Positions 28,816 through 52,895 are shown, counted from the stretch's first letter. The stretch is DNA of 60,645 bases from an uncultured Bacilli bacterium (GCA_944329465.1 CALVII010000001.1:1-60645); one strand, 5' to 3'. The notes: generated by a model not told the origin, from the sequence alone. A program made the numbers and translations.

Positions 28816-28816
28816 A

Positions 28817-33355: not shown

Positions 33356-33357
33356 TA

Positions 33358-35573: not shown

Positions 35574-35793
35574 TCTACATAACCCTTCCTTAGTGATGTT
35601 AATTGATATAACATAAAATTTAAAAATAAGAAGAAAAATCATAATCTTTAGGAACAACAACTATTTCTAACTTATATAATTTAATGTTTACATACTTAAA
35701 TAATTATCAACCGTTTCTATTTTTCACAAAAATACCCTTTTATAAATAAAAATAACTTTAAATTCAAAAAAACTAATTTTTATCATAATATTT

Positions 35794-36231
35794 TTACAAA
35801 TTAAGCCATTTATCATGATGACCATTATTAATTTTTTCTAATAAATCTATTTTAAATCTATCTAACTCAGGATGTTGTTTTGAAAGCATAACTCCATTAT
35901 AAGTAATTAATTCTGACTGATGACCTTCTTTCAATATATCTGCTGGAGATATAGAACTCAAAATTATAACTTTGTTATATTCATCTACCTCATAATGTAA
36001 TTTAATCATGTCATAGACTTTAGCAAATAATTCATAAGTTGGCAAATCCAAAACATACTCTTTTATATTTCCTTTATCTTTTACAACTTTACCAATAAAT
36101 TCACCAGCTTTTAATTTAGGATAGATTTCAAAATACAGTTTTTTAAATGCAAACATATTATACTTTTTCAATGCACTCTCTATCATTTTAAACTCATTTT
36201 CATTTTTATAACCAAAAACATATTTTTCCAT
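35794..36231 (-). CDS. Hypothetical protein, tandem paralog 2
   Basis: 145 aa from the ATG at 36231 (MEKYVFGYKNENEF...). Same leader and RBS as paralog 1. The C-terminal third is divergent. Confidence 0.55.
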   Translation of the reverse strand: MEKYVFGYKNENEFKMIESALKKYNMFAFKKLYFEIYPKLKAGEFIGKVVKDKGNIKEYVLDLPTYELFAKVYDMIKLHYEVDEYNKVIILSSISPADILKEGHQSELITYNGVMLSKQHPELDRFKIDLLEKINNGHHDKWLNL

Positions 36232-36377
36232 TGCACATAACCCTTCCTTAGTGATGACAACTGATATAGCAAAATGCATTAAAGTTATCTATATAAAAGT
36301 ATCATAAAATTTTTCTTTGTATTATGCAATCATGTAACTAATAAAACATAAACCGAAATAAAAACCGATTTAGTTAA

Positions 36378-37559
36378 TTATTGAATCAATTTTTCCAAAA
36401 AAGCAGCTACTCCATCATTATTATTAGATAATGTAACATAATCTACATTTGACTTTATTAAATCAACCGCATTTGCAACTGCCACACTAAATCCACAACT
36501 ATTAAACATTGAAATATCATTTTTATCATTACCAATTGCAATTGTGTTTTTTAATGGAACTTTTAAATAATTAGATAATCTTATTAAAGCATTGCCTTTT
36601 GATACATTACTATTAGAAACACTAAACCATTCCTCACTAAAGATAGAAGTGTCTTTTGTTTCATCAACAATACAAACTTTTTTATTTTTCTTGATTTGAT
36701 TTTTAATTTTTTTTATCTCGTTTTTATTTGAGCCAATAAACATACATTGTTTTATATTTAAATCGCTTAATTGGTTATTATAATTATATTTATCAATTAA
36801 AACTTGATTAGCATTTCTTACTTCTTTTGTAACATAATCAGTATCACCTGTGGATAAAACTAATCTTATATCATTCAAATATGCACATTTAACAAAATTA
36901 AATATTTCATTCTTGTCAATATATAATCCATCAATAATCTTATTAGTACTTATATCATATATTTCTGCACCATTTGAAGAAATAACTATATCTGTAGTTC
37001 CAGCTTTTTTAGCCACTTCTATAGCTTGATATCTAGGTCGTGATGTGCAAATTACAATTATATTTCCATTCTTTTTATTATCTTTAATTGCTTTTTTTGT
37101 TCTATAAGAGATTGTTCCATCAGATCTAGTTAGTGTATCATCATTATCAATTAAAATCATTTTTTTATTGTTGTTTATTTTAGAAATAAACAAATTTTTG
37201 TCATGTACACATTCTATATCTAATTCGTTCATCATTTGGATTAAAGTGTCATATTTACTGTCTAATGGGATGTATACAATAAATGGGAAACGTTGAAAAT
37301 GCACAAAATGTTTTTTCAGACGTAATAATTCGTTATTAAATGTGTTATCACTATTAAAATAATATGTAAATAATGTTTTTGTTTGTTCAACATACGGTTT
37401 AGAAAAACAAGATAAATCATAGGAAAGTCTAATTGGAATTAATTCAATATCACTATTTATAAGATTATTGACTATAAAATTCTCATCATCTTCTATAAAT
37501 GCAACAACTCGTTTATCTTTTAAATTTTGCATTTCACCAAATACATCATAATCTTCCAT
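36378..37559 (-). CDS. Two-domain protein: unknown N-terminal domain (about 130 aa) fused to a Cof-type HAD-IIB phosphatase
   Basis: HAD motif I ILIDNDDTL, motif II ICTSRP, motif IV GNDKNDISM. The N-terminal domain has no recognisable motif. Confidence 0.8.
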   Translation of the reverse strand: MEDYDVFGEMQNLKDKRVVAFIEDDENFIVNNLINSDIELIPIRLSYDLSCFSKPYVEQTKTLFTYYFNSDNTFNNELLRLKKHFVHFQRFPFIVYIPLDSKYDTLIQMMNELDIECVHDKNLFISKINNNKKMILIDNDDTLTRSDGTISYRTKKAIKDNKKNGNIIVICTSRPRYQAIEVAKKAGTTDIVISSNGAEIYDISTNKIIDGLYIDKNEIFNFVKCAYLNDIRLVLSTGDTDYVTKEVRNANQVLIDKYNYNNQLSDLNIKQCMFIGSNKNEIKKIKNQIKKNKKVCIVDETKDTSIFSEEWFSVSNSNVSKGNALIRLSNYLKVPLKNTIAIGNDKNDISMFNSCGFSVAVANAVDLIKSNVDYVTLSNNNDGVAAFLEKLIQ

Positions 37560-37602
37560 TTACATTATGCCATCCATTTCATATAAATATATAAGTAAAT
37601 TT

Positions 37603-38121
37603 TTAACCATTTACTTGTTTTAAGTATTCCTCAATGGCTGATATCATATCTGGAGAAATGATCTTATTTTCTTCGTTATTTGGAATATTTTCTTTTATTT
37701 TTTCAATGGCTTCATTCAATTTAAAAGTTTCTATTTGATAATTATTCCGTTTTTCATGTTCCGTATAATTAACTTTTGTTAAATCAGGCTTTTTATTTGT
37801 TTTAATTATATAATAATATATTTCTGATTTTCTGTTTTTGCCTTTTTCCGGCCAATCCTTATTCATAAAAGTTACTTTCATAAAAGGTCTTTCAATTTCA
37901 TCATCATTAATTTCAATGCCAGTTTCTTCTGACACTTCTCTTTTCAAACACTCGTTAAACGTTTCATTTTGTTCAAGATGTCCACCGGGAAATTGGAACA
38001 AGCTATTTTCATTTCCAATTAAAATTTTATCACCATTAATAATAAGTGCTTTAGTTCTGATGACTGTTTCAGTAATATCAGATTCATTTAAATAATCATA
38101 ATTGTAAATAATTTCTTTCAT
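37603..38121 (-). CDS. Nudix hydrolase (canonical box)
   Basis: GGHLEQNETFNECLKREVSEETGI. The ATG at 38121 (MKEIIYNY) lies 9 nt after AGGAGA. Confidence 0.85.
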   Translation of the reverse strand: MKEIIYNYDYLNESDITETVIRTKALIINGDKILIGNENSLFQFPGGHLEQNETFNECLKREVSEETGIEINDDEIERPFMKVTFMNKDWPEKGKNRKSEIYYYIIKTNKKPDLTKVNYTEHEKRNNYQIETFKLNEAIEKIKENIPNNEENKIISPDMISAIEEYLKQVNG

Positions 38122-38134
38122 TTTACGCATTCTC

Positions 38135-38644
38135 CTAAAATTTTTTAGAAATTGCTAATATGTTTAACATTTCTTTAGCAATACCCCTAGTATCACCAAA
38201 TTTTTTAGCATTTTTTGTGATTTCAGATTTAACATCTTTTACATTTATATATTTATGGCAAAAATTACCAGCTTTTTCATTATCAGTTAAATGTAAATTT
38301 TCTTCATGTGGTTTTTCTTCTAATATTAACTCATAATAATTAATTTCTATCTTTTTATTTCGCCTTTTCTCAGGCCAATCTTTATAATACCCTATTGCTT
38401 GAGCAAAGGGCTCTAATGAAGTTAAATTCAATTTTATTCCAAGTTCTTCTTCTATTTCACGATTAATTGTATTAATTAAACTTTCGTTAGGTTCTACTGT
38501 TCCGCCTGGAAATTCAAAATCATTATGAGCATACACTAAAAGCATTTGATTTTCTTTATTAAAAATTAACAATTTTACTTTTTGTACATAATCTGTAATA
38601 TCTTTGTCTAATAAATTATCCTCATTATAAATTATTTTTTTCAT
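38135..38644 (-). CDS. Nudix hydrolase (canonical box)
   Basis: GGTVEPNESLINTINREIEEELGI. Same subfamily as the 37603 and 28817 products (shared ...WPEK.RNKK.EI.YY... block). Confidence 0.85.
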   Translation of the reverse strand: MKKIIYNEDNLLDKDITDYVQKVKLLIFNKENQMLLVYAHNDFEFPGGTVEPNESLINTINREIEEELGIKLNLTSLEPFAQAIGYYKDWPEKRRNKKIEINYYELILEEKPHEENLHLTDNEKAGNFCHKYINVKDVKSEITKNAKKFGDTRGIAKEMLNILAISKKF

Positions 38645-38650
38645 ATTATA

Positions 38651-39481
38651 TCACCTCACAAATTTTTTCGACTTATTAAATAATACATTCCTATATTTAT
38701 CATATTTAGGATATTTGGCAATCCATCTCATTGAATTTAAATATTCAAACAAAAATAAATTGTAATTAAAATATTTATTATTATATATATCTGGTGCTAA
38801 TTGACATATAATACTTTTAATAGATTGGAATGCCATGTTATCAATAATCACATTATTGTCTTTATTAATAAATGAATATGGATCATCAGCCATTCTAAAA
38901 ATAGAATATATTTCTTTTTCTATAGGAGCAAATTCTATATGTTCAAAGTCAACCAATTTTAAACAATCATTATTAACATATATAACATTATTGAATTGTA
39001 AATCACCATGAATTTGAAAACAAGTATGCATATAGAAATGGCTTTTAATATATTCACGCATTTCCAATAAACATTGAATTGAATTATCATTTGGAATAAT
39101 ATTATTTTCTAGAATAATACTCAAATATTTATCGAATTCTGCTAAATATATATATTGATAATTTTCTTTTGAACGTATTTTATGCAATTCATTGCAAATT
39201 TTTTTTAAGGCGATTAAAACCTGCTGCCTATCACTAACAGATAAAGTACTCCATACTGTAAACAAATTATATCCTTTTATTTTTTCAATAATAATATACA
39301 TGTTATTACAGTCAGTATTATATTCGTATAATTTTGGCATAAAATCATAATGCCTATTCAAATAAAAATCCACTTCCCTTAAAAAATTTTCTCGCCTATT
39401 TAGATTATAACATACTTTTTTTAAACTGTCTTGATTTATAATAATTTCATTATTAAAACCAATTTTTATTTTCTGTTCCAT
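38651..39481 (-). CDS. Aminoglycoside/choline-kinase-fold (APH-like) small-molecule kinase
   Basis: Catalytic loop IHGDLQFNNVIY (HxDxxxxN) and metal-binding LVDFEH (DFE). Confidence 0.7.
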   Translation of the reverse strand: MEQKIKIGFNNEIIINQDSLKKVCYNLNRRENFLREVDFYLNRHYDFMPKLYEYNTDCNNMYIIIEKIKGYNLFTVWSTLSVSDRQQVLIALKKICNELHKIRSKENYQYIYLAEFDKYLSIILENNIIPNDNSIQCLLEMREYIKSHFYMHTCFQIHGDLQFNNVIYVNNDCLKLVDFEHIEFAPIEKEIYSIFRMADDPYSFINKDNNVIIDNMAFQSIKSIICQLAPDIYNNKYFNYNLFLFEYLNSMRWIAKYPKYDKYRNVLFNKSKKFVR

Positions 39482-39493
39482 AAATATTCCTCA

Positions 39494-41014
39494 CTATTGT
39501 AATTGTTGTATTGCTTCCTTAATAGCTACGAAAGATTCAACAAGTTCTTGTGGAGAAAGTGCAAAAGTAATTCTACCAATCAATTTATCATCAGTAAAAT
39601 AACCTAAAGATGAACCAATTAAAAATTTTACATTTTTATATATATAAAAATATTGTAACAGTTTTTTATCATCAGTAATAGTTATATTTTTAAATGTTCT
39701 GTTTTTGAGTAATGAAAAATCTAATAATACAAAGAATCCTCCATTAGGTTTACAATTAGGCAATAAAGAAATTTCTTTAATTCCATCTTTAATTAATTCT
39801 GAATCATTTGTATAATGCCTTATAGTTTTACTAATTCGTTTCTTTAACTTTTTATCTTTTATTATATCTATTCCACTAACTAATGCTAGTACAAGATTAT
39901 ATCTAAAAACATATTCTCCCCTAATTTTTTTAAAATATTTATTATAATATTTATATCTATATGGAGAATTATTAAAAGCACCTATTAAAGCAGCACTTTG
40001 AATGATAGGATATGAATCCATTTGCTGAAATATTTTATTTTGTAATTGTCTAATAATAACTTCATCAGCAACAACAAAACCAGCACGCAAAGCAGCCAAG
40101 CCATAACATTTGCTTAAACCATTAATAGTAATAACGTTGCTAAAATGTTTACCTAATGTTGCCATAGGAACTGCCATTTCGCTTTCACTATAGCAAATAT
40201 CTCTATAAACTAAATCATCAATTATAAAAAAATTATATTTGTTTGCTAATTCTATTAAATCATTCAATAGTTTTAAATCTTTTACACCTAACGATTTTCC
40301 TAATGGATTAGAAGGATTACAATTTAAAAAGGCTTTTACACGAGGTACATAGTTAAGATTTTTATATTTTTCTTTTAACTCTTTATTTTTCTTGTTTATA
40401 AACTTTTTAAGTTTTGCAACATTTATTTTCCAATCATCATCTTCAGATAAATCAATAATTTCACAAAATCCCATCAATCTTTCTGGAACAAAATCAAAAA
40501 AGCTATAATTAGGACCTGGTACAATTACAACATCATAAGGTTTAAGAATGGTTTCAAGGATTAAATTATAAGCATGAGTAGTTGACATTGTAAAAGCAAT
40601 GTTATCTATTGTTAATCCATTTGTAAAAGGAATCATTTCTTTGTTTTTCTCATTAACAAAACCCTCTTTTATTAAATAGTTCATAATAATTTTTCGATGC
40701 TTTTCTAATCCCGCAGCACTAGGATATGAATATAAAGGTTCTTTCAAAACTTTTTTTACTTCTTTTATACATGGATAAAAAGGCTTACTTTTTAAGGGAT
40801 CTCCACTAGAAAAACTATGTTTTGGTAAATTTTTATCTATTAAATTATTATATTCTTTTGTTTTTCTACTACAAAAGTCAATTGCATCATTAACTATAAA
40901 AATTTTTTCAGAAAATTGTTCGTTTAGTTGCCTTTTTCCCAAAAAAGGAATACCCTTAGCTTTTTTTTTCAAAAATGGTTCATTATTTATTATTTCTTGT
41001 ATTATTTTTTCCAT
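39494..41014 (-). CDS. PLP-dependent aminotransferase, class I/II fold, long form (506 aa)
   Basis: NPSNPLG, IIDDLVYRD, and the PLP-lysine context GLSKCYGLAALRAGF. Paralog of the 47980-49533 product. Confidence 0.8.
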   Translation of the reverse strand: MEKIIQEIINNEPFLKKKAKGIPFLGKRQLNEQFSEKIFIVNDAIDFCSRKTKEYNNLIDKNLPKHSFSSGDPLKSKPFYPCIKEVKKVLKEPLYSYPSAAGLEKHRKIIMNYLIKEGFVNEKNKEMIPFTNGLTIDNIAFTMSTTHAYNLILETILKPYDVVIVPGPNYSFFDFVPERLMGFCEIIDLSEDDDWKINVAKLKKFINKKNKELKEKYKNLNYVPRVKAFLNCNPSNPLGKSLGVKDLKLLNDLIELANKYNFFIIDDLVYRDICYSESEMAVPMATLGKHFSNVITINGLSKCYGLAALRAGFVVADEVIIRQLQNKIFQQMDSYPIIQSAALIGAFNNSPYRYKYYNKYFKKIRGEYVFRYNLVLALVSGIDIIKDKKLKKRISKTIRHYTNDSELIKDGIKEISLLPNCKPNGGFFVLLDFSLLKNRTFKNITITDDKKLLQYFYIYKNVKFLIGSSLGYFTDDKLIGRITFALSPQELVESFVAIKEAIQQLQ

Positions 41015-41639
41015 TATTAATCACTAATACCTTTTTTTTACTTTTTGTTGATTGATTAAAATTAAGAAATTGGTCAACTAATTCATTAGGAGTAAATAAT
41101 TCCGAATCTAATTCAATTGGTAAAATATCAAATTTCTGAATTAATTGCTCCCACATTTTTCTTTCCCATATACTTTGTATTTTCACTTCTTCAACATTTG
41201 TAGAACGCATACTACGTTCACCTCTATTAAACCTATCCAGCATTCTTGAATAAATTACCTCAGGACTACAATTAATCAAAACTGCACTAATATTAGTATT
41301 CAAATTCAATAATGTGTTAATTAAATTATTGGATAACGTAGCAACATACGACAAATCTCCATCTATTGAAACAAAATCTTTATTTCTTTGCAAGGCGTAA
41401 TGAACATCTGAAACAACACAATTATGTTGAGTACAAAATGAAATAAATTGATTATCAGCCTCTTCAGAAGAAACATAACTAAACATATTGGCTTCATCAT
41501 ATCCTTTTTGTACTGCACAATCTTTAAATGCATCTAAACGCCTATAAGTATCACAATTATATTTCTTTTTTAATTCCTTCACAAAAGTACTTTTACCACT
41601 ACTTGAAGCTCCACCAACAAATATCAAATTATTAGCCAT
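40983..41639 (-). CDS. P-loop kinase-like protein
   Basis: Walker A FVGGASSSGKSTF within the first 20 aa. Size and layout of small-molecule/nucleotide kinases. 32-nt overlap with the downstream gene. Confidence 0.55.
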   Translation of the reverse strand: MANNLIFVGGASSSGKSTFVKELKKKYNCDTYRRLDAFKDCAVQKGYDEANMFSYVSSEEADNQFISFCTQHNCVVSDVHYALQRNKDFVSIDGDLSYVATLSNNLINTLLNLNTNISAVLINCSPEVIYSRMLDRFNRGERSMRSTNVEEVKIQSIWERKMWEQLIQKFDILPIELDSELFTPNELVDQFLNFNQSTKSKKKVLVINNGKNNTRNNK

Positions 41640-41642
41640 ATA

Positions 41643-42884
41643 TCATTCCTCCATCATAAATTTAATATTATCTATATTTTCTTTATTTTCATATAATATA
41701 TCATATATTTTATTTAATAAAACATTATCGTAAACAGCACAACAATCATTACAACATAACGGTAGTTGTTTTCTTATCTCGTTAGATACTTCATTGTTAT
41801 ATAATTGACTTACTTCATTTACTTTACCATTTAATTTTCCATAATGAAATTGCTTGTCAATAATTTTATCCGTTTGAGTACAAACAATTAAATGATCTCC
41901 ATATAAAACCGGATTGAATAATGCACTAAAGCATATATTAAAACTATTATTTCTTAATTTTCTATCGTCAGAAGATGAATTATATCTTGTTGGTACTTGA
42001 ACTTGTTTTAGATGTTTATACTTTGAATCAGCAATTTTTTTTAATATACTTTTCAATTTAGTGCTTATTTTAGTGGGACTATTGTCATTATATTTAAAGA
42101 CTTTGGCTAATTGAACACAATCAATTCCTATTTTATCTAACTCATATATGAAATCTTCATATAATTCAGAAAATTCTTCTCTTATGCAAGCTCTAACTCC
42201 TATTAATAAGTCACATTCTCTATTATACTGTTTTCTTAATGATACAATTTTCCTTAAAGTATTTAATGAATCTTCATAAGTATATTTTACATGTTTTTGA
42301 TTAGAAAATAAATTATAAGTTATATGATCTATTCCAGGAAAACTTATTCTAATAAAAGAAGCATTTAAAACAAGTTCTGTTAAATCATCATCAGTTAAAC
42401 CACTACCTGTGGACACATAAATAATCTTCATATTACATTTTTGACTAGCATATTTGATTATTTCTTTTCTATAAACATATAAATCCGGATTACCCTCTCC
42501 ACAAAATTCAATTCTAACATTCTCAACACCATTTTCTTTTGAATAAGTAGAAATGTCTTTCAATATTTTTTTATATTTATCAATGTCTAAAACTAAATTA
42601 TTTATATTTTTTTTTGCCCACTCTCTTGATTCTTTTACTAAACAATCTTGACATCTAAAATCGCAGAATGGATAGTCTTTAACTGTTAATGAAACAATTG
42701 GATAATTTTTTGTTTTACCACTTACTATTTCTTTTATAATATTAGCATAATCAACTATAGAATTGGGATAAAAATGTTGTGGAAATTGATTATCTACTTT
42801 TAAAAGAACCTTATTATTCAATTTATTAAAAATAGTAAAACTTTTATAACTAAAATTTTTTTTAAGCGTACTCATTTTTAACAC
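41643..42884 (-). CDS. Radical SAM enzyme
   Basis: CDFRCQDC (Cx3Cx2C) cluster-binding motif and a GEGNP (GGE-like) SAM motif. Cys-rich C-terminus (LPLCCNDCCAVYD) that could hold an auxiliary cluster. Confidence 0.8.
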   Translation of the reverse strand: MLKMSTLKKNFSYKSFTIFNKLNNKVLLKVDNQFPQHFYPNSIVDYANIIKEIVSGKTKNYPIVSLTVKDYPFCDFRCQDCLVKESREWAKKNINNLVLDIDKYKKILKDISTYSKENGVENVRIEFCGEGNPDLYVYRKEIIKYASQKCNMKIIYVSTGSGLTDDDLTELVLNASFIRISFPGIDHITYNLFSNQKHVKYTYEDSLNTLRKIVSLRKQYNRECDLLIGVRACIREEFSELYEDFIYELDKIGIDCVQLAKVFKYNDNSPTKISTKLKSILKKIADSKYKHLKQVQVPTRYNSSSDDRKLRNNSFNICFSALFNPVLYGDHLIVCTQTDKIIDKQFHYGKLNGKVNEVSQLYNNEVSNEIRKQLPLCCNDCCAVYDNVLLNKIYDILYENKENIDNIKFMMEE

Positions 42885-42937
42885 CTCATTTTATCATTTT
42901 CTGTTTTAAACATGCCATCAAAGTTATTATATTGTCT

Positions 42938-43618
42938 TTATATGGCTTTAGTTTTTTCATATCTAATTTCCTTCAAAGTATGGTTTTTCATCTTAAATAT
43001 TCTATCAGATATTTTTTTAACAAATTCTTCTTCATGTGAAACTATAATCAAAGTCATATCGTCTTTTACCATTTCATCTATTAATTTTAAAACTTCCTTT
43101 TTCATTTCTTTATCCAAAGCACTAGTAGGTTCATCCAATAGAATAATTTGAGGTTTCATTAATACAGTTCTAATTATAGCCACTCGTTGTTGTTGACCAC
43201 CAGATAATTCATCTGGATAATTATATTTTTTTTCATCTAAACCTACTTTTCTTAACATAGTTATTGCTTTTCGTTCAGCCTCTTCTTTAGAAAAATGTAA
43301 GATTTTAATTAATCCTATTGTTAAATTTTCTAATACAGTTAAATGTTCAAATAAATTATATTCTTGAAATACTAATCCTATTTTTTGCCTTAATTCTGTT
43401 ATTTTCATATCTTTAATGTCTGTATTGTTTAATAATATTTTACCAGAATCATAATTTTCTAATCTATTTAAACATTTTAATAAAGTTGATTTCCCGCTAC
43501 CGCTTGGCCCAACTATAGAAACTACTTCACCTTTTTTTACATCAAATGATATATCTTTAAATATCACATTGTTACCATAGTATTTAGAAATATTTTTTAT
43601 TTGTAACATATTATTCAA
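42938..43618 (-). CDS. Polar amino-acid ABC transporter ATP-binding protein (GlnQ-like)
   Basis: GPSGSGKST, LSGGQQQRVAI, LLDEPTSALD. The approximately 226-aa size is typical of GlnQ/ArtP. Confidence 0.92.
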   Translation of the reverse strand: MNNMLQIKNISKYYGNNVIFKDISFDVKKGEVVSIVGPSGSGKSTLLKCLNRLENYDSGKILLNNTDIKDMKITELRQKIGLVFQEYNLFEHLTVLENLTIGLIKILHFSKEEAERKAITMLRKVGLDEKKYNYPDELSGGQQQRVAIIRTVLMKPQIILLDEPTSALDKEMKKEVLKLIDEMVKDDMTLIIVSHEEEFVKKISDRIFKMKNHTLKEIRYEKTKAI

Positions 43619-45137
43619 TCACCTGTTTTCTTTTATTAACTTTCTTCTCTATGTATTCTAATAACTTTTGAAATACTATGCAAATTAATAGATAAATCAA
43701 TGCTACTGCAATTAGTGAAAAGAAAGCATCAAAAGTTCTTGAACGAATTAAATCTCCTATTTTAGTTAAATCCATTATTGCAATATAACCAACGATTGAT
43801 GTAGATTTAATAGTAGAAATGACTTGACCTTTATATATAGGAATTATATAACTTATAATTTGTGGAAAAATAATATATTTTACAGTTTGATATTTAGTAA
43901 AACCAATTGAATATGCAGCTTGAATTTGATTTTTATTTATTGCTTCATAACCACCTCTAATCATTTCAGCTACATAAGCAGATAAATATATAGAAAAAGT
44001 AATAATAGAAACTACTATTGCAGAAAGAGGAGTTTTAACAAAAATTAAGTAATACATAATCAATAATAACACTGTAATTGGCATGCCCTGCATAAATGAA
44101 ATAAAAATTTTTGAAATAAATTTCATAATTTTTTTATTTGATACTCGCATTATTCCTACAATAACACCTAAAATAGTACCAAATATAATTGAAAGAATAG
44201 ATATTTCTAGTGTTGTTAACGTTCCTTTGATAAATAATTTATATCTATCTTCTTTTACAAAAGTATTTACAAAATTTTGCTTGATATCCTCTACAACATT
44301 TGAATTTGATATAGAATTTTTTAAAACTATTGCGACAACATCACCCTTATAATTAGGGACAGAAAATAGCATGGATTCTTCTCTCTCTTTTGTAACAATA
44401 ATTCCACATCCAGCCATATCAACTTTACCAACATTAACTGCAGTAAGCAAACCATTCCAATCCAAAACATTAACATTTAAACTATAATCCAATTTATCAC
44501 AAATAAGTAGCATTAAATCTATATCATAGCCAACAATCTTATCATCTTTTAAATAAGAAAATGGGGCTGAAGTAGCTAATGTACCAAAATTTATCGTTCC
44601 ATTTTTTCCAGAAAGTTTTATGTTTTCCAACTTCTTTTCTGATTCATTATTCCCCATCCATTTTTTTTGTAAATAATCTAAAGTACCATCTTTCTTTAAG
44701 TCCAATAAAACTTTATCAACTTTTTCTTTTAATTCTGGATTATTAGGACTAATAGCATAAGCATAATTTTCTACTCCTATAGGTTCATTAAGTATAGCCA
44801 AATCGTTATTATTCTTAATTTCTTCATTAGCCATCGCATCATCTGTTACATAAGCAGCTATTTTACTATTTCTTAAAGCAGAAATTCTATCTACTGCATT
44901 ATCATAGTATTTTAAATCAACATTTTTTAACTTTTTCTTAATTATAGAATCAAAAGTACTCCCTGTTGCTATTCCGATTTTTTCACCATTTAACTCATCC
45001 AATGAATTATAATACTTCACATCAGTAGTAGAATGAAACATTAAAAATGCAACAAATATCAAAATTATAACAACTATAAAAATAAAACTTTTCACAACTT
45101 TATTTTTTATCACTTTTTTAATCTCCTTACATTGCAT
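43611..45137 (-). CDS. Fused substrate-binding domain / permease of a polar amino-acid ABC importer (GlnP-like)
   Basis: Signal anchor, about 250 aa of family-3 solute-binding sequence (GYDIDL, IVTKEREES, ...KKWMG), then a His/Glu/Gln/Arg-type permease with an EAA-like loop (AAYSIGFTKYQTVKYIIFPQ). Confidence 0.85.
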   Translation of the reverse strand: MQCKEIKKVIKNKVVKSFIFIVVIILIFVAFLMFHSTTDVKYYNSLDELNGEKIGIATGSTFDSIIKKKLKNVDLKYYDNAVDRISALRNSKIAAYVTDDAMANEEIKNNNDLAILNEPIGVENYAYAISPNNPELKEKVDKVLLDLKKDGTLDYLQKKWMGNNESEKKLENIKLSGKNGTINFGTLATSAPFSYLKDDKIVGYDIDLMLLICDKLDYSLNVNVLDWNGLLTAVNVGKVDMAGCGIIVTKEREESMLFSVPNYKGDVVAIVLKNSISNSNVVEDIKQNFVNTFVKEDRYKLFIKGTLTTLEISILSIIFGTILGVIVGIMRVSNKKIMKFISKIFISFMQGMPITVLLLIMYYLIFVKTPLSAIVVSIITFSIYLSAYVAEMIRGGYEAINKNQIQAAYSIGFTKYQTVKYIIFPQIISYIIPIYKGQVISTIKSTSIVGYIAIMDLTKIGDLIRSRTFDAFFSLIAVALIYLLICIVFQKLLEYIEKKVNKRKQVIE

Positions 45138-46357
45138 TTATCTTTGGCTACTTCGATTGTAAAATCATCATAAACAACTTGCATTTTGTTTAACACATCT
45201 AATATATCAGTACCACATACTTGAACCCAGCCAGAGCAATCAGAACCAACACGCCTCTTTTTTTGGAACTCGCCAGGTATCGCAAACAATTCTCCATCTA
45301 TTACTCCATCATAACTTAATAATTGTTCTAAAGGTGTAACATATTTTATTATTCCTTCTAAATTAGGAAGATTCAAAGTTCCAACACACTTTTTTATATT
45401 AGAATATTTTAGATTTACTTTTTTACCAATAGCAATATCAATTAAACTGTTCCAAATATCAAATCCATATGACAAGCTATGATTTTCACAAGCACGTCCA
45501 CCAGGTAATCGCCATCCCAATTCACTAGCTATTATAGAACCATTTGACATTACAAAAATTTCTATTGTCATAGTGCCATTCTTTAAACCAAAGCCATCAA
45601 CTATTTTTTGAATATATTCTTTAGGTGTCATCTCAAAATAATCTGGTTGATTTATACAAGTCATATGAGCATGCAGTTTATTTTCTATACTAGCCCAAAT
45701 AGTAGCATTCGGAAGATAAGTTAAATATGAATCCAAAACAATTCCATCTTGCACCAAACTTTCAATTGACCATTCATGTCCATAACAAAATGTTTCTACC
45801 ATATATTTATTAGGCTTTATTTCAATATCTAAATCATTAATATCTTTTACTGACTCTATCTTATAAACGTTCATACTATTCATAGCTCTACGAGGCTTAA
45901 AAATTATGGTTTGGCAATTGTTTTTATAAAAGAAATCAATAATATCATTTTTTGACTCAATTGGTGCATAGTCAACTGTAGAAAGACCAATTTCGTTGAA
46001 TTTATCTTTCATATCAACTTTATCTCTCACCCATTTAACTTGTTCAAAAGATAAACAAGGTAAATCCAGACTATGCGCAATATGATTGGCGATTTCCATA
46101 TAATACTCTGAATCATTTAAAAAACAATCCAAAGTAATATTCTCCTTGTCCAACCACTCTTTAAATTTTCTTATTTCAGTATCATAATCTTTTTCAGTAT
46201 CAAAATAATAAACATTTTGCTCCATCAATTCCTCTTTACTAAAAAATTTATTTATTGTTTTTACTGCTCTAACCTTTAACACATTTACATCATTACGAGC
46301 TGCCAATTTTTTTGATAAAGGGCTTACAAATTCTTCAAAATATAGTAGGTTTTTCAT
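45110..46357 (-). CDS. ATP-grasp ligase (L-amino-acid-ligase-like)
   Basis: 415 aa. IIFKPRRAMNSMNVYKI (central-domain Lys loop), MVETFCYGHEWSIE and ASELGWRLPGG C-domain pattern. Confidence 0.65.
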   Translation of the reverse strand: MKNLLYFEEFVSPLSKKLAARNDVNVLKVRAVKTINKFFSKEELMEQNVYYFDTEKDYDTEIRKFKEWLDKENITLDCFLNDSEYYMEIANHIAHSLDLPCLSFEQVKWVRDKVDMKDKFNEIGLSTVDYAPIESKNDIIDFFYKNNCQTIIFKPRRAMNSMNVYKIESVKDINDLDIEIKPNKYMVETFCYGHEWSIESLVQDGIVLDSYLTYLPNATIWASIENKLHAHMTCINQPDYFEMTPKEYIQKIVDGFGLKNGTMTIEIFVMSNGSIIASELGWRLPGGRACENHSLSYGFDIWNSLIDIAIGKKVNLKYSNIKKCVGTLNLPNLEGIIKYVTPLEQLLSYDGVIDGELFAIPGEFQKKRRVGSDCSGWVQVCGTDILDVLNKMQVVYDDFTIEVAKDKCNVRRLKK

Positions 46358-47070
46358 TTTATTAACCCCCTTGTTTTTATTTTTATATCTTCTGGAACCT
46401 TATTAGCATCCATTATTTGATTTATACCAGTTAATAAAAACGGTATTATGTCTTGACTATAATAATCAGATAAACTAACAACTTGAGTTACATCTAATGA
46501 ATCAATATAATTAACAAGCGCTTCATAAAGACACTTTTTTTTATTTTCAAAGCCACTAAAATTGCTATATGATGTTTTTAATAATTTACTATTCCAAATC
46601 TCAATGCTTTTTTTATCTCTTTCTATTCCTACTTTTGGTGATTCATAAATTCTTTCCCTTTGAAATGTTTCTGGATATTCATAAGCAATCGTTCTATAAT
46701 AAAGTGCAACATCATATGTAGAAGTAATTTCTTTTTCTTTTACTCTATTTTTATAGAGTAAATTTTGAAAGTCATTATTATCCATATATATTTTTGCATC
46801 TAATAATCCTCTATCACAAATAGCAATATTAGCAGAGGTTTCATTTAAGTATTCTTTTATAAATTGTATTTTAAACAGCAAATTCTGAAAATCAAAATAA
46901 GAAATATTATCACCAGGCATATAATTTAAAGATAACAAGCCTCTTGCCGTTTCTGAAATAATTATAACTTTCATACCTCTTGATACTAACTTGTGCTTTA
47001 AAAAAGGCAACGATTCTGTTTTTCCTCCACATGGTCCACCAGTTAATACTACTTTATATGAACTCACCAT
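46354..47070 (-). CDS. P-loop NTPase/kinase of the NadR-C-terminal (AAA_28-like) type
   Basis: VVLTGGPCGGKTE Walker A at the extreme N-terminus, then ISETARGLL. 4-nt and 7-nt overlaps with its neighbours. Confidence 0.55.
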   Translation of the reverse strand: MVSSYKVVLTGGPCGGKTESLPFLKHKLVSRGMKVIIISETARGLLSLNYMPGDNISYFDFQNLLFKIQFIKEYLNETSANIAICDRGLLDAKIYMDNNDFQNLLYKNRVKEKEITSTYDVALYYRTIAYEYPETFQRERIYESPKVGIERDKKSIEIWNSKLLKTSYSNFSGFENKKKCLYEALVNYIDSLDVTQVVSLSDYYSQDIIPFLLTGINQIMDANKVPEDIKIKTRGLIK

Positions 47071-47978
47071 TTCATTCTCCTATTTATACTTTTCGATAAA
47101 ACTTTAGTAATTTCATTTTGAACATTTTTATTTTCAATATATTTAGTTAATAAATCTGGTTCAGCTAATTCAACTTCCATTATTTTTGGAATATCATCTA
47201 CGACAACCATATCCACTCTCATATACAAGTAGTCTTGAAATTCTAGAATACTTTCCACCTCATGAGCTAAATTTAAAACTGATTTTGGAACATTTTCTAT
47301 TAAATATGGTTTTTGTTTTGCATGAAAAACGTTTGGAAATCTTAACATAGTGTGTGTAAGTTGTCCATCAATAAATATACAAGAATATTCTCCAAAATTA
47401 ATCTCTGAAATAAAAGGTTGTATCATAATTTCAAGATCACCGTTTTCTTGCATAAGTGGTTCAAATTTTTCTCTTACATCTTTTAATTCGATTGTATTAG
47501 GTATTTGGAAATTTATATTATTCACATCTAATAAAAAAGTATTTTCACCGCTACCAGAAATAGTCGGTTTTATTACTATTGGAGTTGAGTTCGCTAATTC
47601 CAATAATTTTTTTGAAAATTCTGCTGAATATAAATCTGCAGATGTTAAAAACGCTGTATTTATATGTTCAATATTATAATTGTCAAGAATATTAAATTGC
47701 TTATTTTTTTGGATATTTGTTAAAACCATATCTGGATTATTTAATAACTGTATATCTTTTTCTTTTAATTCGAAAAGCCATGATTTAAATTTTTTATAAT
47801 TGTTTTGGTATCCCCAAACAGATCTCAAAATCAATAAGTCATAATCATCAAGTTTATCTTCTTCCCAAGAAATAATTTTTGCTTTAATATTAAGATTTTC
47901 TAAAGCCAATTTCAGCCTCTTATCTTCATCAATTTTTTCTTTCCATTTATCACAAGAAACAATACCAACTTTTGCCAT
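47064..47978 (-). CDS. ATP-grasp ligase (RimK/glutathione-synthetase-like)
   Basis: VIKPTISGSGENTFLL, MIQPFISEINFGEYSCIFIDG, and YMRVDMVVVDD...MEVELAEPDL. Confidence 0.65.
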   Translation of the reverse strand: MAKVGIVSCDKWKEKIDEDKRLKLALENLNIKAKIISWEEDKLDDYDLLILRSVWGYQNNYKKFKSWLFELKEKDIQLLNNPDMVLTNIQKNKQFNILDNYNIEHINTAFLTSADLYSAEFSKKLLELANSTPIVIKPTISGSGENTFLLDVNNINFQIPNTIELKDVREKFEPLMQENGDLEIMIQPFISEINFGEYSCIFIDGQLTHTMLRFPNVFHAKQKPYLIENVPKSVLNLAHEVESILEFQDYLYMRVDMVVVDDIPKIMEVELAEPDLLTKYIENKNVQNEITKVLSKSINRRMKW

Positions 47979-47979
47979 T

Positions 47980-49533
47980 TTATCTCAACTTCCTTAATGT
48001 TTTATTCATTGCACCCATATGATCAACTATATCTTCTCTCTCTAAAGCTGTAGTAACACGACCAATTAATTTTTCTTCATCTGGAAATGAAATTGACTGT
48101 CCTAAAATAATCTTAATTCTTTCTTGCTCAAACATATATTTTAAAAGTTCTATTTCTGACGTAATAACCCTACCGTCTGCTTCTTTATTCTTTAATTCTG
48201 TATAATCAAGTAGTGCGAAAAATCCAGATTCAGGCATACTGTTATTTACAAAATGAACATTTGGAATACCATCTAATAATTCTTCTACATTAAAATCAGA
48301 ACTTGCATATTTTTTTATATCTTTTTCTACAGATTCTCTAGTAGCAAAATCTTCAATTGCATCTATACCTTCTACCATTCCTTTAAGTAATTCCAATCTA
48401 TATTTATATTCTGTAATTATAGGTTCAAAATACTTGTTATATTCTTGATACCTTTCGGAAGTGGCATTGAATGCTCCTGCTAAAGCCTTACCTTGAATCA
48501 CAGGCGATGAATCCATCTGCTGAAAAATGTAGTTTCTTACGCCTCTTATTATAGACTTATTTGCTACAATCATTCCCGCTCTTAAAGAAGCTAAACCATA
48601 GCATTTTGATAAACCCATCATTGTAATAGTATTATCAAAATACTTTTCTTTTGTTGCCATTGGTAATGATAAATTATCACGGTCAAATGTTAAATCCCTA
48701 TATATTATGTCATCAATAACAAATACTCCTTTATCAAGGCAAACATCACCAATTTTATACAATAACTCTTGATTACTAGCATTCATTACTTTTCCCATTG
48801 GATTATGAGGATTTTCATTTAGAAAAGCCACTACCTTAGGAATATATCCAAGTGAATCACCAAATTTTTGCTTTAAATTTTCATTAATTTCATCAATTCT
48901 TATTGCTAATTTTTCTGGATTCACACACCAATTATCATCTTCTGATAATGGTAATATTTCTACTGTTGCTCCAGCAGCTCTTTCAGGGACAAATGTAAAC
49001 AAACCATAATTAGGACCTGTCATTAAGATTACATCATATGGTCTAGCTATTAAATTCATAACAATATTAAATGCTTGTGTAGTTGAAAGAGTAAAAATAA
49101 TATTATCCTCATCTAATTGATATGGGGCTTTAAAACCTTCTTTTTCTAAATATTTCACAATCTCTTTTCTTGCTTCTTCATCTCCAGCAGCCATCGGATA
49201 TTCTGACATATCATCCAAATTAATTGCCTCTAACATCTTTTCTTTACACGGTGGAAAAATAGGAGTTTTCATGGGGCTACCACCGCCCAATGATCTAGTA
49301 TTTAAATTTTTGATTTTATCATTTTCTAATTGATATAAATCATTACCATATATAGAAAAAGCATCATAAATTTTTCTAACTTCTGTTGAAAAAGGACCTC
49401 CATCTAATCTAGTACCCAAATTAGGTAACCCTCTTACTTTTTCCCTTAATAATTGATTTTTTTCCAAAAAACTTTCAAGCGCTTTGGAATTAGTAGACAT
49501 AATATCACTTCTTTCTGCGATACTATTATACAT
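47980..49533 (-). CDS. PLP-dependent aminotransferase, class I/II fold, long form (517 aa)
   Basis: NPHNPMG, VIDDIIYRD, GLSKCYGLASLRAGM. Paralog of the 39494-41014 product, with the same approximately 90-aa N-terminal extension. Confidence 0.8.
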   Translation of the reverse strand: MYNSIAERSDIMSTNSKALESFLEKNQLLREKVRGLPNLGTRLDGGPFSTEVRKIYDAFSIYGNDLYQLENDKIKNLNTRSLGGGSPMKTPIFPPCKEKMLEAINLDDMSEYPMAAGDEEARKEIVKYLEKEGFKAPYQLDEDNIIFTLSTTQAFNIVMNLIARPYDVILMTGPNYGLFTFVPERAAGATVEILPLSEDDNWCVNPEKLAIRIDEINENLKQKFGDSLGYIPKVVAFLNENPHNPMGKVMNASNQELLYKIGDVCLDKGVFVIDDIIYRDLTFDRDNLSLPMATKEKYFDNTITMMGLSKCYGLASLRAGMIVANKSIIRGVRNYIFQQMDSSPVIQGKALAGAFNATSERYQEYNKYFEPIITEYKYRLELLKGMVEGIDAIEDFATRESVEKDIKKYASSDFNVEELLDGIPNVHFVNNSMPESGFFALLDYTELKNKEADGRVITSEIELLKYMFEQERIKIILGQSISFPDEEKLIGRVTTALEREDIVDHMGAMNKTLRKLR

Positions 49534-49636
49534 TTATATATCAATAAAATAAAATATCAATTTTAAATACATCATATAACATTTTTAAATATGTTTGTTT
49601 ACTAATAAAAAAATAAATCATAATTGACTTATTTTT

Positions 49637-50146
49637 TTAGTTAATATATGACATAATTTCATTATTAATTCTCTCAATAAGATAATAAGAAATTTCCCCA
49701 TTATTACACATTTTTACTATTTCTTGTTTATCTATAAATTTTGCTTCTGTCGCACTATAATCATTAAAAGAAATATTTTTAATATCAATTTCATCGAATA
49801 AAATACAAGTTATGTATGCATATCTATAAGGATTTCTTTTTACTGGGGGATATATTTTTTTATGTTCAATTGAACATGAACTGCCTATTTTTTGATTTAT
49901 AATTCGAGCAATAGCAGTTTCTATAGTTTCACCATGACATAAATTTCCTCCAATGCAAGACCAGCTTCCAGGATAACGTTTTGAATAATCAAGAGAATTT
50001 TTTATTAACAATACTTCCTTTTTTTTGTTAATTATCCAAATTTCTAAAGAAATATGGTAATAATTATCCGGAACCCTTTCTTTATTAGAAATTGTTTTAT
50101 CAATCTTATTCAAGTTCTCATCATATAAATCCCATGTTTCCATCAT
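49637..50146 (-). CDS. Nudix-fold protein with degenerate catalytic box
   Basis: GNLCHGETIETAIARIINQKIGS keeps Gx5Ex7R, but REUxEE reads RIINQK, so three metal-binding Glu are lost. The start overlaps the LysR stop by 4 nt. Confidence 0.65.
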   Translation of the reverse strand: MMETWDLYDENLNKIDKTISNKERVPDNYYHISLEIWIINKKKEVLLIKNSLDYSKRYPGSWSCIGGNLCHGETIETAIARIINQKIGSSCSIEHKKIYPPVKRNPYRYAYITCILFDEIDIKNISFNDYSATEAKFIDKQEIVKMCNNGEISYYLIERINNEIMSYIN

Positions 50147-51033
50147 TTCATCTCCTCAGTAATATAATTTTTTAACAACTTAATAAAATTATACACTATT
50201 TGGGTATTTTTTGTATATGCAATTGATAAAACATCTTTAAAAATATCCTCCTTAATATTAATAATATATAAAGATTTATCTTGCAAAAACTTTTTTAACA
50301 ACAACTTATTAGAAAAACCTATTCCAACATTTTCTTGTACTAATTTATAATATAAATCAGATTCATTAACATTAACTATTTCTAAAAAACTAACATCATT
50401 TTCATAACAAAAACGTTTAAATTTTCCTGCTTTTAATGATGGTTTATAAGCTATAAATGGTACAGTATCTATTTCACTAACCGAGTTTACATTTTTATAA
50501 TCACTTAATGCTTCGTTTCCACAAATAAAGCAATTTTCTATTTCACATACAACCTCTGTCTTCACATTTTCCAATTGGCTAATATAATCATTATCATCTA
50601 TAACTATATCATATTGACCGTTTTTTACTTTATTAAAATCCAACTTCGAATATAAATCAATGTTTATTTTAATATTTGGATATGCGTTTCTAAATGTTTT
50701 TAAAAAATCAGATAATATTATTTTACCATAACTATATCTAATTCCAATATTAATTTCCAAATATTTTTTCTCATTAGTTAAAAAATCAATGTTTTTTTCA
50801 ATACTTTCAAAAACTGGCTTTAATATTTCGAATAATTGATAACCTTCTCCAGTCAAAGTAAATTGCTTATTACTTCTATCTATAAGTGTTTTATTTAACT
50901 GTGATTCTAAATTTTTAATACTTAAACTTAAGGAAGGTTGAGCAACATTTAAGTTTTTAGAAGCATTTGTAACACCATTATATAAAACTACATAATAAAA
51001 ATATTTAAACAAATTAAAGTTAAAATTGTCCAT
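50143..51033 (-). CDS. LysR-type transcriptional regulator
   Basis: N-terminal wHTH FKYFYYVVLYNGVTNASKNLNVAQPSLSLSIKNLE, followed by an approximately 200-aa periplasmic-binding-protein-like effector domain. Confidence 0.85.
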   Translation of the reverse strand: MDNFNFNLFKYFYYVVLYNGVTNASKNLNVAQPSLSLSIKNLESQLNKTLIDRSNKQFTLTGEGYQLFEILKPVFESIEKNIDFLTNEKKYLEINIGIRYSYGKIILSDFLKTFRNAYPNIKINIDLYSKLDFNKVKNGQYDIVIDDNDYISQLENVKTEVVCEIENCFICGNEALSDYKNVNSVSEIDTVPFIAYKPSLKAGKFKRFCYENDVSFLEIVNVNESDLYYKLVQENVGIGFSNKLLLKKFLQDKSLYIINIKEDIFKDVLSIAYTKNTQIVYNFIKLLKNYITEEMK

Positions 51034-51323
51034 ATCAATACATTTTCCTTTCTAAATAATATTTAAGTAAAATCTGCATACTATCCTTATATTTTCTAAA
51101 GAAAGTAAAAAAACAATTTCTCATATCTAAGATTTATTAAAATAAACACAATCAATATAATTGTATCATATTCTGTCATAGTTAGCCTTTCTTTTTAGCT
51201 ATTTTCAAAATTTCTTCTTTTTTTCACTATACCACCTACTAATAAAATTATATCACTTGTATTTTTTGATAGTAAATAGTATTTGTTCACATTTTTTTAC
51301 CTTTATGTGCATGAATGCTAACG

Positions 51324-51434: not shown

Positions 51435-51456
51435 CTAACCATGAAAAAAAGAGGTT

Positions 51457-52605: not shown

Positions 52606-52608
52606 ATT

Positions 52609-52884: not shown

Positions 52885-52895
52885 ATTTCCTCTCC

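Follow-up and report, generated by a model that had tools for sequence, protein, structure and literature searches.

The window analysed here is a stretch of 60,645 nucleotides (nt) from an uncultured Bacilli bacterium (GCA_944329465.1, CALVII010000001.1:1-60645), in which 15 successive open reading frames (ORFs) on the minus strand span positions 51033 to 36378. The block starts with a gene for a LysR-type transcription regulator, ends with a gene for a haloacid dehalogenase (HAD) phosphatase, and encodes two ATP-grasp proteins, two aminotransferases, three kinase-like proteins, three Nudix proteins, a radical S-adenosylmethionine (SAM) enzyme and an amino-acid importer. A previous sequence-only reading had described these 15 genes and the sizes of their junctions, and the ORF listing of the window agreed with it exactly. 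Pfam, NCBIfam and fold evidence confirmed its calls of the LysR regulator, the two aminotransferases, the two ATP-grasp proteins, the three kinases, the HAD protein and the importer; its radical SAM call was borne out by an invariant CxxxCxxC motif and the AlphaFold fold, though no family model matched. Four Nudix genes had been counted; the interval holds three, and the fourth lies outside it, at 28817-29359. The genes of the front half are the following.

50143-51033, minus strand: LysR-type transcription regulator, the first gene of the block (HTH_1 1e-12, LysR_substrate 1e-14)
49637-50146, minus strand: NudA, a Nudix-fold protein (NUDIX 7e-7) with the degenerate catalytic box GETIETAIARIINQKIGS
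47980-49533, minus strand: AT1, a long-form (517 amino acids, aa) class I/II aminotransferase dependent on pyridoxal phosphate (PLP) (Aminotran_1_2 1e-24)
47064-47978, minus strand: DcsG-like ATP-grasp protein of the carboxylate-amine ligase or cyclase type (D-cycloserine synthetase model 2.9e-19, full length)
46354-47070, minus strand: AAA_28 P-loop kinase-like protein with a NadR-kinase-type fold (AAA_28 1.9e-13; P-loop GGPCGGKT)
45110-46357, minus strand: BlsI-like ATP-grasp ligase of the L-amino-acid-ligase type (ATP-grasp_4 and LAL_C2)
43611-45137, minus strand: fused solute-binding domain and permease of a polar-amino-acid ATP-binding cassette (ABC) importer (SBP_bac_3 and BPD_transp_1)
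42938-43618, minus strand: ABC ATPase of the importer (ABC_tran 5e-42)

The genes of the back half follow.

41643-42884 (with the listed GTG start), minus strand: radical SAM enzyme with an auxiliary cysteine cluster (CxxxCxxC; AlphaFold model)
40983-41639, minus strand: AAA_18/dNK-like P-loop kinase, nucleoside or nucleotide kinase-like (AAA_18 3e-7, KTI12, dNK 8e-4; P-loop GGASSSGKST)
39494-41014, minus strand: AT2, a paralogue of AT1 (39% identity over the full length, with the N-terminal extension in common)
38651-39481, minus strand: APH/choline-kinase-like small-molecule kinase (HGDLQFNN and DFE; Pkinase 1e-5; weak APH(3') and Bud32 matches)
38135-38644, minus strand: NudB, a canonical Nudix hydrolase (box REIEEELGI)
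37603-38130, minus strand: NudC, a canonical Nudix hydrolase (box REVSEETGI)
36378-37559, minus strand: Cof-type HAD-IIB phosphatase (residues 132-393; Hydrolase_3 3e-52) joined to a conserved alpha/beta domain (residues 1-131)

Neighbouring genes of the block overlap by 4, 7, 4, 28, 8 and 32 nt or are separated by gaps of 1-103 nt, the widest of which (103 nt) lies between the NudA and AT1 genes. Since most ORFs of the window are on the minus strand (48 of 56 with 100 aa or more), the one-strandedness of the block is uninformative by itself. However, a scan of the interval found no terminator-like site inside the 15-gene block, which, together with the tight junctions, is consistent with a single transcription unit. 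These two features, and above all a gene order kept in at least 37 other genomes, set the block beyond chance. The best promoter-like site 5' of the LysR gene (51247-51276, minus strand; 10/12 match with a TG extension) is suggestive only, as such sites were not enriched over shuffled sequences in this AT-rich DNA. Just upstream of the block, at 51450-51466, the preceding CapA-like gene has a terminator-like hairpin. Between the first penicillin-binding protein (PBP) gene of the division and cell wall (dcw) cluster and the operon, positions 51457-55189 carry this CapA-like (PGA_cap) gene, a small ORF, a cardiolipin-synthase-like phospholipase D gene and a plus-strand CmpB-like gene, all of which are outside the conserved block. 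Across the whole window, Rfam returned no riboswitch or T-box able to name an amino acid; its only two matches were a ribosomal protein L21 leader and one tRNA, at 1025-1096 and 22013-22083.

The LysR orthologue heads the block in most of the loci found in other genomes (L numbers below), and the NudA gene overlaps the LysR gene by 4 nt. NudA reads RIINQKIG where REUxEE is expected, the catalytic glutamates being gone, and its orthologues are likewise degenerate, with R/K-x-[IV]-x-x-K-I-G. NudA, translationally coupled to LysR, is probably a non-hydrolytic partner that binds a ligand or an intermediate, and the description of pyrophosphatase capacity as heavily redundant in the sequence-only reading was overstated, since one of the Nudix proteins looks non-catalytic. 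In other lineages, a NudA-type Nudix domain, there with a canonical box, is fused N-terminally to an AT1-type aminotransferase, providing a Rosetta-stone link between NudA and AT1. AT1, which carries NPxNP and the PLP lysine in SKxxG, is encoded by the most conserved gene of the block (56-75% identity across loci). Its family is rare, with 76 clusters (50% identity) at E ≤ 1e-30 among 1.84 billion representatives; the best NCBIfam match was GntC, at 91 bits against a cut-off of 415, and no equivalog was assigned. A PDB sequence search with AT1 gave only one weak match, and the plasmid collection held no match at E ≤ 1e-25. Two relatives of AT1, P0363 and P0414, carry other fusions, with a C-terminal GNAT acetyltransferase in one and an N-terminal thiamine-diphosphate enzyme in one that is more distant.

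The two ATP-grasp proteins of the block show no sequence relation to each other. The first scored 69.3 bits against a cut-off of 360 for the DcsG equivalog NF058666, making it a homologue and not an equivalog. Its family profile matched the DcsG structure 6jil at 5e-20, far ahead of D-Ala-D-Ala ligase (3e-4), and PF27100 (DcsG_N) is annotated on its orthologues; a single-sequence PDB search found nothing, and the plasmid collection gave only weak matches on Vibrio plasmids. The second, BlsI-like protein matched the solved L-amino acid ligase 4wd3 at 5e-16 and had PRK02186 as its best NCBIfam model. It has 432 relatives (90%-identity clusters) at E ≤ 1e-5, of which the best 120 are all 54% or more identical across 96% or more of the query; no relatives of this ligase were found on viral contigs. 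The importer, of the PAAT family, is complete, with SBP_bac_3, BPD_transp_1 and ABC ATPase components all in the block. Its binding domain (residues 44-286) is circularly permuted, the C-half of SBP_bac_3 preceding the N-half, in both copies checked, namely the fusion in the window and the stand-alone binding protein of L003 (11239-12006). The permuted domain best matched Gln/Arg-type binders (AncQR, ArtJ), and it is collinear only with the tandem-domain junction of GlnPQ (6h30), suggesting that the permutation arose through duplication and truncation.

In the back half, the radical SAM gene probably begins at 42875, which gives 410 aa, the length called in identical contigs. The gene had no Pfam or NCBIfam match, and a profile search of PDB sequences returned nothing. 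However, all 42 homologues compared keep CxxxCxxC (C74, C78 and C81) and three or four further cysteines, including C318, C335 and C381, and PF04055 is annotated on several of them. The AlphaFold model (pLDDT 91.4) gave DesII as the top Foldseek match (E = 1e-11), followed by CteB, BlsE (5e-10), SuiB, SkfB, anSME, viperin and MoaA. The motif and the predicted fold together confirm that the product belongs to the radical SAM superfamily. The similarity to BlsE (TM 0.53/0.65) is equalled by that to DesII and to the peptide-modifying SPASM enzymes, and in sequence BlsE reaches only E = 4e-5, with a 308-aa radical SAM type present in relatives. The window-type family also occurs in DPANN archaea, where a Nanoarchaeia metagenome-assembled genome (MAG) carries it at L045 (10001-14028) beside a second radical SAM gene, a degenerate copy, a Nudix gene and a P-loop kinase like the AAA_18 protein of the window. 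In three bacterial loci (L044, L046 and L047), the same family stands in a cassette of a hydrolase, a WG_beta_rep protein, a protein of about 800 aa and a Phage_30_3 protein, an unannotated 244-aa protein taking the WG_beta_rep position in L047.

PF01636 (APH) is annotated on orthologues of the small-molecule kinase at 38651-39481, and AT2 is an accessory gene common only to the window and L036. The HAD domain scored 145 bits against a cut-off of 137 for the Cof subfamily. The model of the whole HAD fusion (pLDDT 91) matched sugar-phosphatase structures at E = 4e-23, these fold matches being dominated by the HAD domain. The N-terminal domain is not a Nudix domain and has no PDB sequence relative; it carries invariant D3, Y4, D5, E9, K82-K83-H84-F85 and H87.

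The locus survey used one genome per species and found 37 loci; the block is thus present in at least 37 species-level genomes, to which hundreds of metagenome proteins can be added, and is not the orphan that it was first taken to be. All 37 loci are in MAGs whose labels read Bacilli, Tenericutes, Bacillales, Acholeplasmatales, Mycoplasma or just bacterium, and whose sources are the guts of rabbits, goats, humans and other hosts. The order of the front half is invariant: LysR, the degenerate Nudix protein, AT1, the DcsG-like protein, in some loci the AAA_28 protein, the BlsI-like ligase, the binding protein, the permease and the ATPase. The back half is a mosaic around a constant set, made up of the Cof-HAD protein, a canonical Nudix hydrolase and either one kinase or two, and it usually includes a radical SAM enzyme. 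A 308-aa enzyme of the radical SAM/SPASM type is found in about half of the loci, and some loci also encode a PNP_UDP_1-like protein, an NTP_transferase-like protein, a second APH kinase, a dTMP-kinase-like protein, a methyltransferase-like protein or a second aminotransferase; weak matches to sugar-1-phosphate nucleotidylyltransferases were also seen in these sister clusters. Two main variants can be distinguished, here called A and B, and the cluster of the window is a hybrid of the two, matched only by L036 and in part by L041. The AAA_28 gene is confined to variant A and occurs in about 15 loci; the N-terminal domain of the HAD protein is fused in variant A and a separate ORF in L036 (11235-11630) and L041 (9464-9862). 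At the AAA_18 position, variant B has a dTMP-kinase/dNK-like kinase that is unrelated by BLAST, and the two are thus analogous rather than orthologous.

The flanks vary as well. The block lies between MurT/GatD and FtsA/FtsZ in L003, among unrelated genes in L005 and L006, and beside a Mur ligase in L030. Its co-conservation across several genomic contexts upholds the earlier proposal that it behaves as one unit and removes the possibility, raised with that proposal, that the genes are not conserved together as a block. In L049, a Nudix::aminotransferase gene immediately precedes a methyltransferase-like gene of the back-half type (E = 1e-101). In L050 and L051 (GC content 36%), the block consists of NTP_transferase, Nudix::aminotransferase, a PIG-L deacetylase, an AT1-like protein, DcsG_N, an L-amino-acid-ligase-like protein, a B12-radical SAM protein, a radical SAM protein and a Na/alanine symporter, indicating that a four-gene core with an amino-acid importer recurs with different tailoring enzymes of sugar or nucleotide type. 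As far as seen, the operon family appears not to extend beyond MAGs of uncultured "Bacilli/Tenericutes" from animal guts, except for a related version that one other lineage carries.

Several relatives carry the block in a form that indicates how it moves. In L008 (4739-21243), a class-B PBP gene is split near residue 415, and the 14.8 kb between its halves hold only the LysR-to-HAD genes and a serine recombinase gene; the same truncated PBP gene lies upstream of the cluster in L027, L029, L032 and L037. In L030 (4866-19756), a like element splits a D,D-carboxypeptidase (Peptidase_S11) gene at profile position 109; in both L008 and L030, the gene halves on either side of the recombinase element are co-oriented. 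Downstream of the block, the window has two paralogous ORFs, a 445-aa DarB-like piece, two ORFs, a serine recombinase gene, a PBP fragment, a kinase end and a Nudix-HAD pair, in that order, with the following features.

32089-36279, minus strand: decayed mobile-element genes between the block and the recombinase gene
34756-36279: two full paralogous ORFs and a third, partial copy (65% identity), directly after the cluster (no Pfam or PHROG match)
33358-34695, minus strand: 445-aa piece of a DarB-like antirestriction helicase/methylase, the remnant of a giant protein (phrog_10089 7e-118, profile positions 2754-3224 of 4647)
29905-31686, minus strand: large serine recombinase (Resolvase, Recombinase and Zn_ribbon_recom; phrog_95 integrase 2e-94)
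29733-29960, minus strand: 72-aa fragment of a class-B PBP, covering residues 347-418 and sharing 89% identity with the intact PBP of the window (24228-26132)
27670-29508, minus strand: remnant of a second cluster copy, which matches the 3' end of the L037 cluster (17400-19236) at 98.4% nt identity across 1840 nt; its parts are a 40-aa APH-like kinase end (29390-29509), the Nudix gene (28817-29359) and a short Cof-HAD gene (28033-28815)

The recombinase of the window is 36-53% identical to recombinases that follow the HAD gene in relatives, and its homologues close the cluster elements in L008, L027, L029 and L030. The PBP fragment ends exactly at the residue where the PBP of the relatives is split, and the fragment and the intact PBP coexist in the window. 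The operon, judging from these arrangements, can move as a whole on large-serine-recombinase elements with insertion sites in PBP genes, and the window is an intact operon beside decayed remains of such elements.

Horizontal acquisition of the cluster had been considered likely, and this held for its parts more than for its core. The core shares 66-70% nt identity with L037, the neighbouring PBP gene 70.5%, and the GC content of the block is not deviant; since the core diverges in step with the PBP gene and has an ordinary GC content, its association with these genomes is old, and a recent acquisition of the core is rejected. In contrast, the 98.4% identity of the 1.84-kb Nudix-HAD piece, against 66-70% elsewhere, points to recent horizontal transfer followed by deletion of most of the second copy. 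Together with the carriage of the cluster by recombinase elements in relatives, this supports the other part of the claim, and the 98.4% piece shows that parts of the cluster still pass from species to species.

The flanks of the relatives carry sporulation genes, identifying the hosts as spore formers. Gene-intervening elements are established in spore formers, namely skin in sigK, SPbeta in spsM and gin in gerE (PMC5595907, PMC4191935, PMC5025042). The elements in L008 and L030 resemble them in having a large serine recombinase gene at the end of an element that splits a gene into co-oriented halves. They differ in that the split genes encode a class-B PBP and a D,D-carboxypeptidase and the cargo is a 13-kb metabolic operon instead of prophage genes. 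The window itself retains only the recombinase and the 72-aa PBP fragment of such an arrangement, with the PBP gene intact.

No protein of the block, nor any protein of the sister clusters, reached a curated NCBIfam equivalog cut-off, and no characterised pathway thus fits, in agreement with the sequence-only reading, which had matched the gene set to no named pathway. The scores for the bacilysin and dapdiamide ligases were far below their cut-offs (BacD 17 vs 850 bits; DdaF 24 vs 840 bits), as was that for DcsG. A literature search for this gene combination found no paper describing the cluster. Salvage of NAD, CoA, folate, thiamine, methionine or 5-deoxyribose and synthesis of low-molecular-weight thiols were rejected, the defining enzymes being absent from the domain list. 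The enzyme families are all known; their combination is uncharacterised.

The closest annotated relatives come from gene clusters for cytosyl peptidyl nucleosides of the blasticidin S and arginomycin type. The BlsI-like ligase is 27-30% identical, over more than 83% of the length, to ATP-grasp ligases on actinomycete plasmids (phmmer E = 2.5e-46 and 2.6e-49), a match much stronger than that to 4wd3. The first of these ligase genes lies in a blasticidin S-type cluster with genes for cytosylglucuronic acid (CGA) synthase, blsE, blsF, blsG, a DegT aminotransferase, a major facilitator superfamily (MFS) protein, a methyltransferase and a nucleoside 2-deoxyribosyltransferase, and we take it to be blsI from its position in the bls gene order. 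Another match lies in an arginomycin-like cluster with beta-methylarginine genes, and a third in a cluster of the nonribosomal peptide synthetase (NRPS) type. The ligase of the block may thus be assigned to the BlsI type at the level of the family only. These pathways and the block share a homologous ATP-grasp ligase, and BlsE is among the top fold matches of the radical SAM enzyme. They are also alike in logic, in that an ATP-grasp ligase joins an amino acid to an amino-sugar nucleoside and is accompanied by a PLP aminotransferase and a radical SAM enzyme that edits the sugar. However, CGA synthase, a BlsM-type nucleotide hydrolase, an arginine aminomutase, a DegT-type aminotransferase and an exporter have no counterpart in the block, and the plasmid-borne CGA synthase (BlsD) and BlsM, a member of the nucleoside 2-deoxyribosyltransferase family, matched no protein of the window or of its relatives. 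Conversely, the block has an importer, three kinases, Nudix hydrolases and an HAD phosphatase, and its host is a low-GC gut bacterium and not an actinomycete. The arginomycin aminotransferase and keto-acid methyltransferase (ArgM and ArgN) were considered as a model for AT1 and the methyltransferase-like gene of variant A and rejected, ArgM matching only generically (E = 1e-7) and ArgN not at all.

Other pathways resemble the block in part. Among characterised proteins, the D-cycloserine synthetase DcsG (6jil) is far closer than any other to the first ATP-grasp protein, over the full length. However, genes of the DcsA-F type are absent, and the 15 proteins of the block include no arginase-like DcsB, racemase DcsC, O-ureidoserine synthase DcsD or acetyltransferase DcsE domain. 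The 3'-aminonucleoside pathways of puromycin, A201A and ADG work on a nucleotide-derived scaffold with an aminotransferase, a Nudix hydrolase and a monophosphatase, and with a ligase that attaches an amino acid (PMC11641026). The block has these same four reaction types, the puromycin enzymes named for comparison being Pur10, Pur4, the Nudix hydrolase Pur7, the phosphatase Pur3 and the ligase Pur6; this is an analogy of logic and not homology, and the Nudix::aminotransferase fusions of the relatives fit the puromycin-type pairing of these two enzymes. The canonical Nudix and HAD genes of the block recall this pathway too, a role on nucleotide intermediates being putative. The families of phosphatase and ligase and the class of aminotransferase differ, however, and the block lacks the Pur10-type NAD-dependent dehydrogenase and the Pur4 DegT aminotransferase, having no oxidoreductase and two aminotransferases that are both Aminotran_1_2. 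Phosphonopeptide clusters with nucleotidyl activation, such as those for argolaphos and FR-900098, are a further analogy. The argolaphos cluster encodes a Nudix hydrolase, a 416-aa PRK02186-type ATP-grasp protein, a nucleotide-kinase-like protein, an aminotransferase and a nucleotidyltransferase (PMC8976061), and PRK02186 is the best model of the second ATP-grasp protein of the window too. Unlike such clusters, the block has no phosphoenolpyruvate (PEP) mutase or phosphonopyruvate decarboxylase, so no C-P bond is possible, and any activated group would instead be a kinase-made phosphate ester. As the scaffold-forming enzymes of all the compared pathways are absent, the block is a member of none of them.

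Considering these results, we propose that the block is one LysR-controlled operon that would direct the biosynthesis of a small amino-acid amide conjugate, of the peptidyl-nucleoside or amino-sugar type, by way of phosphorylated or nucleotide-linked intermediates; we give this reading a probability of about 0.5. The peptidyl-nucleoside or amino-sugar logic is suggested by the BlsI-like match, the DesII/BlsE-like fold, the sugar-phosphatase-like HAD domain and the nucleoside and sugar-nucleotide enzymes of the sister clusters. The occurrence of two types of importer in two lineages (ABC and Na/alanine symporter) indicates that the amino acid is a substrate, and the elements in L008 and L030 and the blocks in L049, L050 and L051 indicate that the front and back halves are linked. 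The recurrence of the radical SAM, Nudix and P-loop kinase trio in a nanoarchaeal genome is also counted in favour. The general chemistry put forward in the sequence-only reading, consisting of import, transamination, radical chemistry, two ligations and phosphorylated or nucleotide-linked intermediates, is reinforced by the NTP_transferase-like and PNP_UDP_1-like proteins and the APH kinase of the sister clusters, the fusions, L050/L051 and the BlsI-like match. Its observations were largely right, and its interpretation, right in outline, is partly supported.

In the proposed scenario, a polar amino acid would be imported through the Gln/Arg-like binding protein. AT1, with AT2 where present, would interconvert alpha-keto and alpha-amino acids, modifying the skeleton or making a non-proteinogenic amino acid. 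Both ATP-grasp enzymes would activate carboxylates as acyl phosphates to form two amide or amide-like bonds, one of them probably with an amino group on a sugar or nucleoside scaffold, which is the role of the BlsI-type ligase in blasticidin S clusters. The kinases, and the nucleotidyltransferase where present, may keep the scaffold phosphorylated or nucleotide-linked, and the DesII/BlsE-like radical SAM enzyme may edit its sugar. A canonical Nudix hydrolase and then the Cof-HAD phosphatase would strip pyrophosphate and phosphate last, amounting to cryptic phosphorylation or nucleotidylation. A broader and more tentative proposal, which we hold to be possible but on balance doubtful, is that an entire clade of uncultured, small-genome gut Bacilli carries a self-contained, recombinase-mobilised island in sporulation-type PBP genes, which would make a new class of aminoacyl- or peptidyl-nucleoside (or amino-sugar) products diversified by lineage-specific back halves. 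Its chemistry would rely on the DcsG-like and BlsI-like ligases, on the pairing of the long aminotransferase with a Nudix-fold protein and on cryptic phosphorylation or nucleotidylation.

Several points weigh against the biosynthetic reading. The block has no scaffold-forming enzyme (glycosyltransferase, CGA-synthase type or enolpyruvyl transferase) and no exporter, and its aminotransferases are of the amino-acid type (class I/II) and not of the sugar type (DegT). The similarities to characterised enzymes are all remote, at 27-30% identity or at the level of the fold. The radical SAM gene was not found in several complete-looking clusters, such as L006, L018, L031 and L040, and thus is not essential to the core chemistry. 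The back half varies so much between lineages that one defined product may be doubtful, and presence in many small genomes could signal a housekeeping role. Furthermore, all the sequences come from metagenome assemblies.

The alternative that survives best, though we consider it unlikely, is that two unrelated modules are neighbours: a front module importing an amino acid and making a di- or tripeptide-like compound, and a back module serving nucleotide salvage or house-cleaning. The mosaic back half beside an invariant front half suits this idea, as does the nanoarchaeal set, which lacks ATP-grasp and aminotransferase genes, and adjacency on one strand is cheap where nearly all window genes share it. 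However, the two halves are adjacent in every long-enough locus across contexts, and the mobile elements carry both halves and nothing else besides their recombinase. In the window, no terminator-like site separates the halves. The Nudix::aminotransferase fusions, L049 and L050 also mix functions of the two halves.

Somewhat less probable still is a pathway for the cell wall or spore cortex, in which the ATP-grasp ligases and the aminotransferase would produce an unusual amino acid or attach it to a nucleotide-linked peptidoglycan precursor. It would explain the location in the dcw cluster, where the operon of the window lies between two class-B PBP genes, and the positions beside MurT/GatD and FtsA/FtsZ in L003 and a Mur ligase in L030 agree with it, as do D-Ala-D-Ala ligase being the second-best structural relative of the DcsG-like family and the presence of the family in many small genomes. 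In the relatives, however, the cluster interrupts the PBP gene as recombinase cargo and is not part of a dcw operon, and other contexts are unrelated to the cell wall. The block also has no Mur-type ligase, glycosyltransferase or racemase, and its ligases have enzymes of secondary metabolism as their best relatives.

A role in anti-phage defence or antagonism, through a toxic nucleotide analogue made in a viperin-like manner by the radical SAM enzyme and a nucleotide kinase, with the Nudix and HAD enzymes giving self-protection, seems improbable. The radical SAM gene is followed by that of a P-loop kinase, its family recurs with a Phage_30_3 protein in three other loci, and the cluster is mobile with a diversifying back half. 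PADLOC, too, gave weak domain-level matches for the Nudix proteins (PDC-S07) and the kinase (PD-T4-6), but the aminotransferases, the ATP-grasp proteins and the radical SAM enzyme had none. The fold matches of the radical SAM enzyme include viperin, but below DesII, the SPASM enzymes and BlsE, at rank 29 and lower (TM 0.42-0.46). An importer, a LysR regulator and two ligases are foreign to known nucleotide-analogue defence systems, some clusters lack the radical SAM gene, and a search of viral contigs found no relatives of the BlsI-like ligase. Self-protection against a toxic nucleotide-like product, which had been suggested from the sequence, is possible. Finally, an island for the catabolism or salvage of an imported amino-acid conjugate (an opine, Amadori compound or nucleoside-amino-acid) is the least probable alternative: a transporter with a LysR regulator, kinases and an aminotransferase is the usual layout of substrate-induced utilisation, SBP_bac_3 proteins bind opines and deoxyfructosyl-amino acids too, and the cluster is mobile-element cargo, but ATP-grasp ligases are synthetic and not degradative enzymes, the two in the block are its most conserved enzymes after AT1 and have biosynthetic relatives, and the block encodes no hydrolase, lyase or oxidase able to cleave such a conjugate.

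Animal and human guts commonly harbour carriers of this operon, which are known from metagenomes alone and have a chemistry that is almost unexplored. A strongly conserved, regulator-controlled and importer-fed ligase pathway, one example being only 14.8 kb with its recombinase, offers a clonable handle on the chemistry of gut bacteria. If the product is peptidyl-nucleoside-like, a mainly actinomycete class would extend to gut Firmicutes, with new ATP-grasp ligases and a new pairing of Nudix and aminotransferase proteins. A metabolic operon as the sole cargo of a PBP-splitting element would furthermore broaden the known gene-intervening elements of spore formers.

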